From NCBI RefSeq assembly GCF_057098645.1, contig NZ_CM169472.1: 64,000 nucleotides of DNA, one strand, 5' to 3'. Made by a program: the position numbers. Below are positions 54,801-60,800 of this stretch, piece after piece; position 1 is the stretch's first letter; each line of letters starts with the position of its first letter.

Positions 54801-57800
54801 GGCGCTGCCGCCATTGTTTTTGTACTGATTCAGCATTTACCAGACTTAATATCGCAGCGCTCTCCAGTGCCTCTTCATTGCTTAAATCTGGCAAAAGACC
54901 ATTAATACGGCTGGCGAGCATTGTTTTACCTGTTCCCGGCGGCCCAATCAGTAAAAGGTTGTGCCCGCCAGCGGCGGTAATTTCCAGTCCTCGCTTTCCT
55001 TGTTCCTGACCGACAACATCACTGAGATCATGTTGTAGCGCCCGGGATACTGCATCAGTTGGTTTCGGGCGTTCGAGAGTGTGCTTACCTTCCAGAAACG
55101 CACAGACAGCTTGCAGATGATCGGCTATCAGGCATCCTTCACCGTTAATTAGCCCCACTTCATCTTCGTTATCTTTCGCGACGATAATTTTTCTGCCCGA
55201 CTTAATAGCTTCAGTTGCACTGGAGATTGCACCGGGAACGCCACGCAGAGCGCCTGTAAGCGCCAGTTCTCCGACTAATTCATATTCATCTAACTTATTG
55301 GCTGTAAGCTGTTCTGAGGCCGCCAGCAACGCAATGGCGATAGGTAAATCATATCGTCCCCCTTCTTTTGGCAGATCGGCTGGAGCCAGGTTGATGGTGA
55401 TTTTTTGGGCCGGATATTCATATCCGCTATTGATAATGGCGCTGCGCACGCGATCGCGGGCTTCTTTTACCGTTGTTTCTGGTAAGCCCACCATCGTTAA
55501 GCCGGGTAGACCTTTACTGATATGTACCTCAACAGTGATTGGGGGCGCATTTACTCCCAGGGCTGCGCGGGTATGAACAATTGACAGTGACATAAGCCCT
55601 CCTTGAGTCACCATTATGTGCATAAGATATCGCTGCTGTAGCCCGCTAATTCGTGAATTTTAGTGGCTGATTCCTGTTTATTTGTGCAAGTGAAGTTGAG
55701 TTGTTCTGGCGGTGGAATGATGCTCGCAAAAATGCAGCGGACAAAGGATGAACTACGAGGAAGGGAACAACATTTATACTGAAATTGAATTTTTTTTCAC
55801 TCACTATTTTCTTTTTAAAAAACAACAATTTCTATTGAAATTATTAAAGCCATCATAAAAATCGGCCAAAAAATATCTTGTGCTATTCGCAAAATCTATG
55901 GTAACTCTTTAGGCATTCCTTCGAACAAGATGCAAGAAAAGACAAAATGACAGCCCTTCTACGAGTGATTAGTCTGGTCGTGATTAGCGTGGTGGTGATT
56001 ATTATCCCACCGTGCGGGGCTGCACTTGGACGAGGAAAGGCTTAGAGATCAAGCCTTAACGAACTAAGACCCCCGCACCGAAAGGTCCGGGGGTTTTTTT
56101 TGACCTTAAAAACATAACCGAGGAGCAGACAATGAATAACAGCACAAAATTCTGTTTCTCAAGATTCAGGACGGGGAACTAACTATGAATGGCGCACAGT
56201 GGGTGGTACATGCGTTGCGGGCACAGGGTGTGAACACCGTTTTCGGTTATCCGGGTGGCGCAATTATGCCGGTTTACGATGCATTGTATGACGGCGGCGT
56301 GGAGCACTTGCTGTGCCGACATGAGCAGGGTGCGGCAATGGCGGCTATCGGTTATGCCCGTGCTACCGGCAAAACTGGCGTATGTATCGCCACGTCTGGT
56401 CCGGGCGCAACCAACCTGATAACCGGGCTTGCGGACGCACTGTTAGATTCTATCCCTGTTGTTGCCATCACCGGTCAAGTGTCCGCACCGTTTATCGGCA
56501 CTGACGCATTTCAGGAAGTGGATGTCCTGGGATTGTCGTTAGCCTGTACTAAGCACAGCTTCCTGGTGCAGTCGCTGGAAGAGTTGCCGCGCATCATGGC
56601 TGAAGCATTCGACGTTGCCAGCTCAGGTCGTCCTGGTCCGGTTCTGGTCGATATCCCAAAAGATATCCAGTTAGCCAGCGGCGACCTGGAACCGTGGTTC
56701 ACCACCGTTGAAAACGAAGTGACTTTCCCATATGCCGAAGTTGAGCAAGCGCGCCAGATGCTGGCAAAAGCGCAAAAACCGATGCTGTACGTTGGTGGTG
56801 GCGTGGGTATGGCGCAGGCAGTTCCTGCTTTACGAGAATTTCTCGCTACCACAAAAATGCCTGCCACCTGCACGCTGAAAGGGCTGGGCGCAGTTGAAGC
56901 AGATTATCCGTACTATCTGGGCATGCTGGGAATGCATGGCACCAAAGCGGCGAACTTCGCGGTGCAGGAGTGCGACTTGCTGATCGCCGTGGGTGCACGT
57001 TTTGATGACCGGGTGACCGGCAAACTGAACACCTTCGCACCACACGCCAGTGTTATCCATATGGATATCGACCCGGCAGAAATGAACAAGCTGCGTCAGG
57101 CACATGTGGCATTACAAGGTGATTTAAATGCTCTGTTACCAGCATTACAGCAGCCGTTAAATATCAATGACTGGCAGCTACACTGCACGCAGCTGCGTGA
57201 TGAACATGCCTGGCGTTACGACCATCCCGGTGACGCTATCTACGCGCCGTTGTTGTTAAAACAACTGTCGGATCGTAAACCTGCGGATTGCGTCGTGACC
57301 ACAGATGTGGGGCAGCACCAGATGTGGGCTGCGCAGCACATCGCCCACACTCGCCCGGAAAATTTCATCACCTCCAGCGGCTTAGGTACCATGGGTTTTG
57401 GTTTACCGGCGGCGGTTGGCGCACAAGTCGCGCGACCGAACGATACCGTTGTCTGTATCTCCGGTGACGGCTCTTTCATGATGAATGTGCAAGAGCTGGG
57501 CACCGTAAAACGCAAGCAGTTACCGTTGAAAATCGTCTTACTCGATAACCAACGGTTAGGGATGGTTCGACAATGGCAGCAACTGTTTTTCCAGGAACGA
57601 TACAGCGAAACCACCCTTACCGATAACCCCGATTTCCTCAAGTTAGCCAGCGCCTTCGGCATCCCTGGCCAACACATCACCCGTAAAGACCAGGTTGAAG
57701 CGGCACTCGACACCATGCTGAACAGTAATGGGCCATACCTGCTTCATGTCTCAATCGACGAACTTGAGAACGTCTGGCCGCTGGTGCCGCCTGGTGCCAG

Positions 57801-60800
57801 TAATTCAGAAATGTTGGAGAAATTATCATGATGCAACATCAGGTCAATGTATCGGCTCGCTTCAATCCGGAAACCTTAGAACGTGTTTTACGCGTGGTGC
57901 GTCATCGTGGTTTCCACGTCTGCTCAATGAATATGGCCGCCGCCAGCGATGCACAAAATATAAATATCGAATTGACCGTTGCCAGCCCACGGTCGGTCGA
58001 CTTACTGTTTAGTCAGTTAAATAAACTGGTGGACGTCGCACACGTTGCCATCTGCCAGAGCACAACCACATCACAACAAATCCGCGCCTGAGCGCAAAAG
58101 GAATATAAAAATGACCACGAAGAAAGCTGATTACATTTGGTTCAATGGGGAGATGGTTCGCTGGGAAGACGCGAAGGTGCATGTGATGTCGCACGCGCTG
58201 CACTATGGCACCTCGGTTTTTGAAGGCATCCGTTGCTACGACTCGCACAAAGGACCGGTTGTATTCCGCCATCGTGAGCATATGCAGCGTCTGCATGACT
58301 CCGCCAAAATCTATCGCTTCCCGGTTTCGCAGAGCATTGATGAGCTGATGGAAGCTTGTCGTGACGTGATCCGCAAAAACAATCTCACCAGCGCCTATAT
58401 CCGTCCGCTGATCTTCGTCGGTGATGTTGGTATGGGCGTTAACCCGTCAGCGGGATACTCAACCGATGTGATTATCGCCGCTTTCCCGTGGGGAGCGTAT
58501 CTGGGCGCAGAAGCGCTGGAGCAGGGGATCGATGCGATGGTTTCCTCCTGGAACCGTGCAGCACCAAACACCATCCCAACCGCGGCGAAAGCCGGTGGTA
58601 ACTATCTCTCTTCCCTGCTGGTGGGTAGTGAAGCGCGCCGCCACGGTTATCAGGAAGGTATCGCGCTGGATGTGAATGGCTACATCTCTGAAGGTGCAGG
58701 CGAAAACCTGTTTGAAGTGAAAGACGGCGTGCTGTTCACCCCACCGTTCACCTCCTCAGCGCTGCCGGGTATTACCCGTGATGCCATCATCAAACTGGCG
58801 AAAGAGCTGGGAATTGAAGTGCGTGAGCAGGTGCTGTCGCGCGAATCACTGTACCTGGCGGATGAAGTGTTTATGTCTGGGACAGCGGCAGAAATCACGC
58901 CAGTGCGCAGCGTAGACGGTATTCAGGTTGGCGAAGGCCGTTGTGGTCCGGTCACCAAACGCATCCAGCAAGCCTTCTTCGGCCTCTTCACCGGCGAAAC
59001 CGAAGATAAATGGGGCTGGTTAGATCAAGTTAATCAATAAATACAAAAAATGGGACGGCACGCACCGTCCCATTTACGAGACAGACACTGGGAGTAAATA
59101 AAGTATGCCTAAGTACCGTTCCGCCACCACCACTCATGGTCGTAATATGGCGGGTGCTCGTGCGCTGTGGCGCGCCACCGGAATGACCGACGCCGATTTC
59201 GGTAAGCCGATTATCGCGGTTGTGAACTCGTTCACCCAATTTGTACCGGGTCACGTCCATCTGCGCGATCTCGGTAAACTGGTCGCCGAACAAATTGAAG
59301 CGGCTGGTGGTGTTGCCAAAGAGTTCAACACCATTGCGGTGGATGATGGGATTGCCATGGGACACGGGGGGATGCTTTATTCACTGCCATCTCGCGAACT
59401 GATCGCTGATTCCGTTGAGTATATGGTCAACGCCCACTGCGCCGACGCCATGGTCTGCATCTCTAACTGTGACAAAATCACCCCGGGGATGCTGATGGCC
59501 TCTCTGCGTCTGAATATTCCGGTGATCTTTGTTTCCGGCGGCCCGATGGAGGCCGGGAAAACCAAACTGTCCGATCAGATCATCAAGCTCGATCTGGTTG
59601 ATGCGATGATCCAGGGGGCAGACCCGAAAGTTTCTGACTCCCAGAGCGATCAGGTTGAACGTTCCGCATGCCCAACCTGCGGTTCCTGCTCCGGGATGTT
59701 TACCGCTAACTCAATGAACTGCCTGACCGAAGCGCTGGGTCTGTCGCAGCCGGGCAACGGCTCGCTGCTGGCAACCCACTCTGACCGTAAGCAGCTGTTC
59801 CTCAATGCTGGTAAACGCATTGTTGAATTGACCAAACGTTACTACGAGCAAAACGACGAAAGTGCACTGCCCCGCAATATTGCTAGCAAAGCGGCGTTTG
59901 AAAATGCCATGACGCTGGATATCGCGATGGGTGGATCGACTAACACCGTTCTTCACCTGCTGGCGGCGGCGCAGGAAGCGGAAATCGACTTCACCATGAG
60001 TGATATCGACAAACTTTCGCGTAAAGTCCCGCAGTTATGCAAAGTTGCGCCGAGCACCCAAAAATACCATATGGAAGATGTTCACCGTGCTGGTGGTGTT
60101 ATCGGTATTCTCGGCGAACTGGATCGCGCTAACTTACTGAATCGCGATGTGAAAAACGTACTTGGCCTGACGTTGCCGCAAACGCTGGAACAATACGACG
60201 TTATGCTGACCCAGGATGACGCGGTAAAAAATATGTTCCGCGCAGGCCCTGCAGGCATTCGTACCACACAGGCATTCTCGCAGGATTGCCGCTGGGATAC
60301 GCTGGACGACGATCGCGCAAATGGCTGTATTCGCTCGCTGGAACACGCCTACAGCAAAGACGGTGGCCTGGCGGTGCTCTACGGAAATTTCGCGGAAAAC
60401 GGCTGCATCGTTAAAACCGCGGGCGTCGATGACAGCATCCTCAAATTCACCGGCCCGGCGAAAGTATACGAAAGCCAGGACGATGCGGTAGAAGCGATTC
60501 TCGGCGGTAAAGTTGTCGCGGGCGATGTGGTTGTTATCCGCTACGAAGGCCCGAAAGGCGGTCCGGGGATGCAGGAAATGCTCTACCCAACCAGTTTCCT
60601 GAAATCAATGGGTCTCGGTAAAGCCTGTGCGCTGATCACCGACGGTCGTTTCTCCGGCGGTACCTCTGGTCTTTCCATCGGTCACGTTTCACCGGAAGCG
60701 GCAAGCGGCGGCAGCATTGGCCTGATTGAAGACGGCGACCTGATCGCCATCGACATTCCGAACCGTGGCATTCAGTTACAGGTAAGCGATGCCGAACTGG

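Follow-up and report, generated by a model that had tools for sequence, protein, structure and literature searches.

The stretch of DNA analysed here, referred to throughout as the window, comprises 64,000 nucleotides of an Escherichia coli genome (contig NZ_CM169472.1 of assembly GCF_057098645.1), and the subject of this study is the gene ilvG within its isoleucine–valine (ilv) operon. The gene, which codes for the catalytic subunit of acetolactate (acetohydroxyacid) synthase II (AHAS II), occupies positions 56185..57831 on the + strand as one uninterrupted open reading frame (ORF) of 548 amino acids, with an ATG start and no internal stops. A preliminary description of the window had placed an intact 548-residue ilvG at these positions; the ORF listing returns identical coordinates, and re-inspection of 56185–57831 for a frameshift or premature stop finds none, only a single open frame. 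The probability that 548 sense codons would stay open by chance is approximately (61/64)^548, or ~ 4e-12.

The gene lies in the canonical operon order ilvL-ilvX-ilvG-ilvM-ilvE-ilvD-ilvA, all on the + strand. The first member, ilvL (55947..56045), is an ORF coding for a leader peptide of 32 residues (MTALLRVISLVVISVVVIIIPPCGAALGRGKA) rich in Ile, Val and Leu codons, and is recognised by NCBIfam model NF007744 at 81.9 bits (cut-off 59). The attenuator terminator follows at 56070..56101, where the sequence and its RNA fold give a G+C-rich hairpin, CCCCCGCACC-GAAA-GGTCCGGGGG, and then eight T. The fold of 56040–56110 has an energy of − 24.8 kcal/mol (z = − 3.99 versus shuffles). A simple terminator scan of the + strand passed over the attenuator owing to a single mismatch within the stem; direct RNA folding recovered it. 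The amino acid sequences of IlvL and IlvM are identical to those of K-12, and the attenuator hairpin contains none of the positions at which the leader region differs from that of K-12. The whole region 55876–56165 matches Rfam family RF02744, “Soft rot Enterobacteriaceae Rev 39 5'UTR”, with 158.8 bits (gathering score 88), the sole Rfam match at gathering score within 53000–64000. Since the match covers the ilvL leader and attenuator, RF02744 would seem to be the family of the ilv operon leader. Upstream of ilvL, where the sequence is A+T-rich, homopolymers at two places are one base longer than in the O145:H28 strain RM13514, by a T at 55790 and by an A at 55868; these differences could be real variation or a sequencing error in either record.

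Between the attenuator and ilvG lies the 16-residue small ORF ilvX (56132..56182), which is annotated at the equivalent position in both RM13514 and K-12. Downstream, ilvM (57828..58091) is an ORF for the 87-residue small subunit of AHAS II, which scores 133.9 bits on NCBIfam NF008362 (cut-off 68). The TGA stop of ilvG overlaps the ATG of ilvM as ATGA, as is usual in translational coupling. The remaining genes are ilvE (branched-chain amino-acid aminotransferase, 58111..59040) and ilvD (dihydroxy-acid dehydratase, 59105..60955), both found as ORFs and in the collinear RM13514 annotation, and ilvA (biosynthetic threonine deaminase, 60958..62502), the last gene of the operon, assigned from the same annotation. 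On the 3' side of ilvA the RM13514 annotation gives the divergent ilvY and then the start of ilvC.

The assignment of the ilvG product to isozyme II is clear from profile searches. It scores 1071.3 bits against the NCBIfam equivalog NF006524, “acetolactate synthase 2 catalytic subunit” (cut-off 738), with residues 1–547 matching profile positions 1–547 of 548, and the other AHAS isozyme-specific models listed in the same search are all under their own cut-offs. The generic large-subunit model TIGR00118 is also passed (718.3 versus 538.35 bits). Pfam identifies the architecture of an enzyme dependent on thiamine diphosphate (ThDP), namely PF02776 (TPP_enzyme_N) at residues 1–115, PF00205 (M) at 186–321 and PF02775 (C) at 374–522, with all three domain scores far over the Pfam cut-offs. 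The nearest solved structure is 6LPI, the large subunit of E. coli AHAS I (E = 1e-160). A search for the ThDP/Mg2+ motif with the pattern GDG-X(24-27)-N(N/Q) located it at residues 427–456 (GDG...DNQ). The residues E47, F109, M250, R276, V375 and W464 are all present at their expected positions; these we take to be functionally important in AHAS II, E47 in catalysis and the other five in substrate specificity.

The same gene is broken in K-12. The MG1655 annotation (NC_000913.3) lists ilvG (b4488) as a 1645-bp pseudogene, and a global alignment of the 1647-bp gene of the window to it gives a single indel together with 33 substitutions. The indel is the “AT” at 57161..57162 (+ strand), nucleotides 977–978 of the gene, which has no counterpart in K-12, where the deletion follows nucleotide 976. 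The window reads AAT-ATC-AAT-GAC-TGG (N-I-N-D-W) whereas K-12 reads AAT-CAA-TGA, so that translation of the K-12 gene ends ...QQPLNQ*, after residue 327, with the TGA as codon 328. The ilvG of the window has neither the 2-bp deletion nor the TGA at codon 328. The frameshift in K-12, stated in the preliminary description with alignment to the K-12 region proposed as the check, is thus borne out by annotation and alignment, and also by the literature (PMC3446290, PMC7066862, PMC8605374). The lesion has been described as a frameshift with a premature UGA, and evolved MG1655 has regained the frame through single-base deletions at the ilvG TGA (PMC8605374); that 1-bp deletions should do so agrees with a K-12 gene that is two bases short. 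The genome paper for E. coli W calls the lesion “two separate base pair insertions” (PMC3032704). Our alignment instead shows K-12 to be two bases shorter than the window and the other wild-type alleles.

We determined how widespread the two states are in 5,426 complete E. coli genomes, counting the K-12 junction as the only disruption of the reading frame. All but one of them (5,425) match the full-length ilvG query. A 76-bp probe across the point where K-12 has lost the two bases has an exact match in 340 genomes. Among those listed (60 in the best-hit table and five in a sample spread over the matches), all 65 are laboratory K-12 derivatives; carriers include MG1655, DH5alpha, DH1, C600, J53, HMS174 and RR1. 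The other full-length matches in the spread sample, 54 of 54, span 78 bp at the junction and hence have the two extra bases. The 78-bp intact junction of the window itself is exact in 2,899 genomes, and the remainder mostly differ by single-nucleotide polymorphisms (SNPs). In O157:H7 Sakai, and in six isolates from different parts of the phylogeny (Nissle 1917 and E2348/69 among them), ilvG is annotated as a normal coding sequence of 548 residues. Published work also has the gene intact in E. coli B strains, where it mediates valine resistance (PMC3446290), and in E. coli W, B and Crooks (PMC3032704). Since the K-12 junction is confined to K-12 derivatives among the genomes listed, and the two bases are present elsewhere in the sample, intact ilvG is the ancestral state, typical of the species, from which K-12 departs by a 2-bp deletion of its own. 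Intact ilvG outside K-12 is already known and is ordinary; the preliminary description understated this, as the intact gene is the norm and K-12 the exception.

The lineage of the window can be specified more closely. At least 24 complete genomes share its ilvG with 100% identity; almost all of them carry the label O145 or O145:H28 Shiga-toxin-producing E. coli, and their sources are cattle, humans, lettuce and water. The 24.9 kb at 6111–31000 are 99.9–100% identical to the same O145:H28 strains, and from 6105 to 64000 (57.9 kb) the window is collinear with RM13514, with 46 scattered differences, many of them at 47905–52685 in the region of the ribosomal RNA (rRNA) operon. By comparison, the ilv operon is ~ 97.4% identical to that of K-12. 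At a distance from the operon, the interval between yieH and phoU (~ 3714–12489) has no similarity to the cbrBC-yieKL-bglHBFG block found at the same position in K-12. The identity to O145:H28 in ilvG, the 33 SNPs and the indel relative to K-12, the level of identity in the operon and the replaced yieH–phoU block all uphold the earlier suggestion that the DNA does not come from a laboratory derivative of K-12. The further remark that an intact ilvG fits the presence of an effector-like island also holds, in that the yieH–phoU island is unrelated to the K-12 block and is consistent with an origin outside K-12. It is almost certain, in our judgement, that the ilvG of the window is an ordinary wild-type allele of non-K-12 E. 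coli, belonging to the O145:H28 Shiga-toxin-producing lineage, and that it encodes AHAS II together with ilvM.

Other explanations of an open frame have to be set against this. The gene could have come from a K-12 derivative in which ilvG had been repaired, either an ilvG+ (valine-resistant) revertant or an engineered strain; K-12 revertants are known, the single-base TGA deletions of evolved MG1655 (PMC8605374) being examples, and engineered repairs have been reported (bioRxiv 10.1101/2025.10.31.685768). However, a repaired K-12 gene would not differ from K-12 at 33 further sites in an operon only ~ 97.4% identical, nor would it lie in tens of kilobases that are 99.9–100% identical to O145:H28 genomes, beside a yieH–phoU island that K-12 lacks. 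The frame here moreover contains the natural “AT”, with no compensating 1-bp deletion. This explanation is already refuted by these observations, and we assign it a vanishingly small probability. It is scarcely more credible that the intact frame is an artefact of sequencing or assembly at the site of the indel. The window does have a few homopolymer indels elsewhere relative to the closest complete genome, and some error in one of the records is possible, but the indel site (AAATATCAATG) is not a homopolymer, the 78-bp junction recurs exactly in the 2,899 genomes noted above, and the gene is base-for-base the same in at least 24 independently assembled genomes.

A subtler alternative is that the ORF is intact but missense changes specific to the lineage have crippled the enzyme, which would amount to a cryptic loss of function in O145:H28. 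Two observations weigh against an entirely ordinary, functional allele. The IlvG of O145:H28 carries H183Y, Q332L, A335T and D515N, which are absent from K-12, Sakai and six other E. coli and hence unique to this allele among the nine sequences compared, and the two homopolymer differences upstream of ilvL fall where the promoters of the operon are expected. In the same direction, five of the 23 nucleotide differences from the ilvG of O157:H7 Sakai are non-synonymous. Pairwise alignments of AHAS II with AHAS I and plant AHAS, however, show variation at positions 183, 332, 335 and 515, all four of which lie in segments that are variable among the homologues. The residues taken to be of mechanistic importance and the ThDP motif are conserved. 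The equivalog score is far over its cut-off, and at least 24 independent complete genomes, of cattle, human and produce origin, carry the allele without a change. With the unique substitutions mapped onto the AHAS alignments in this way, we consider cryptic inactivation by missense change very unlikely. We think it similarly improbable that the four substitutions measurably change the kinetics, stability or herbicide or valine response of AHAS II; the existence of the substitutions is the whole basis for the idea. Two of them, Q332L and A335T, lie just downstream of the site broken in K-12.

Returning to the wild-type interpretation, we infer, with good support and in agreement with the preliminary description, that this allele would give a functional, valine-insensitive AHAS II, because the catalytic residues, ThDP motif, IlvM, leader peptide and attenuator hairpin are all intact. 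AHAS II depends on ThDP, flavin adenine dinucleotide (FAD) and Mg2+ and condenses pyruvate with pyruvate or 2-ketobutyrate, the first common step of valine/leucine and isoleucine synthesis. Valine exerts feedback inhibition on isozymes I and III but not on AHAS II, whose insensitivity is documented for the E. coli isozyme in general (PMC3446290, PMC7066862, bioRxiv 10.1101/2025.10.31.685768). Inhibition of the other two isozymes by valine is documented (PMC7066862). Expression of the operon would be governed by ribosome-mediated attenuation, in which translation of the Ile-, Val- and Leu-rich ilvL leader determines whether the terminator hairpin forms. Read-through transcripts would then express ilvG and ilvM, with ribosomes translating ilvG to its stop and reaching the overlapping ilvM start, and the products would assemble as AHAS II. 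Because translation of ilvG is uninterrupted, ilvEDA should escape the polarity that affects these genes in K-12; Parekh and Hatfield are said to have described that polarity in 1997. A strain possessing AHAS II would be spared the isoleucine starvation induced by valine. For this particular allele we infer from sequence the enzyme activity, the valine insensitivity and the valine-resistant growth phenotype.

What the intact gene offers in practice is a quick sign that a sequence has some source other than a K-12 laboratory strain, and it has little importance beyond that. It also predicts valine-resistant growth and normal expression of ilvEDA. According to a recent preprint, acetolactate synthase (ALS) II resists valine, uropathogenic E. 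coli (UPEC) in human urine needs no other isozyme, and repair of the frameshift in MG1655 restores growth in urine (bioRxiv 10.1101/2025.10.31.685768). AHAS II can thus be the sole active isozyme in a host fluid containing valine, as that preprint shows, and its presence in Shiga-toxin-producing E. coli is therefore what would be expected of a host-adapted wild isolate.

The remaining landmarks of the window lie outside the ilv operon. The effector-like yieH–phoU island contains a gene for a “hypothetical protein” of ~ 802 residues, split by an insertion sequence, IS2, into ORFs 3856–4812 and 6065–7618 (minus strand), followed by a pentapeptide-repeat protein of 395 residues (7901–9088) and an 843-residue ORF (9542–12073, minus strand) whose RM13514 RefSeq annotation reads “type III effector protein, internal stop”. 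No Pfam domains were found in either of the large proteins (~ 802 and 843 residues). The IS2 is complete (1,331 bp, 4775–6105), is flanked by the target duplication TTTTG at 4770–4774 and 6106–6110, and has transposase ORFs of InsC/InsD type at 4821–5231 and 5189–6094. It was found at this site in none of the 5,426 complete genomes, so that the strain of the window is not one of them. Together with its 5-bp target duplication, it accounts for the 1,336-bp offset between the coordinates of the window and those of RM13514. Further along, three DnaA-box matches (TTATCCACA, TTATACACA, TTATCCACA) cluster at 31425–31613 in the mnmG–mioC intergenic region, and the window thus appears to span the chromosomal replication origin, oriC; the cluster, in the position expected of oriC, is the one observation from which the placement is drawn. 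The oriC 13-mer pattern GATCTNTTNTTTT gave no match and was probably mis-specified. A complete rRNA operon (16S, tRNA-Glu, 23S, 5S, tRNA-Asp, tRNA-Trp) at 47432–52660 corresponds to rrnC and lies ~ 3.5 kb upstream of the ilv operon.

Several characterised systems bear comparison with the locus. One is AHAS I, whose large subunit IlvB (6LPI) is a paralogue of IlvG; the two share fold family and chemistry and align from end to end over residues 2–544, but AHAS I is valine-sensitive and has IlvN as its partner, and the protein of the window scores as AHAS II and not on any other isozyme-specific model. K-12 MG1655 has the orthologous locus (b4488, formerly ilvG_1/ilvG_2) with the same neighbours, yifB, ilvL, ilvX, ilvM, ilvE, ilvD and ilvA, and its ilvG has ~ 98% nucleotide identity to that of the window; when the K-12 gene is repaired in silico, its product has nine amino acid differences from the IlvG described here. 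Other wild-type E. coli (B, W, Crooks, CFT073, Nissle 1917, E2348/69 and O157:H7 Sakai) have a 548-residue ilvG and an operon layout like that of the window, from which their ilvG differs by allelic substitutions only; across seven sequences compared, with the repaired K-12 protein left aside, these amount to 5–13 amino acid differences. In such strains the gene is reported to be intact and to make the cell resistant to valine (PMC3446290, PMC3032704, bioRxiv 10.1101/2025.10.31.685768). Closest is O145:H28 RM13514, in which ilvG (WP_001012635.1, a normal coding sequence) is identical at 1647 of 1647 bp and the operon and flanking genes are alike, the 46 scattered differences and the extra IS2 at 4775–6105 distinguishing the window from it.

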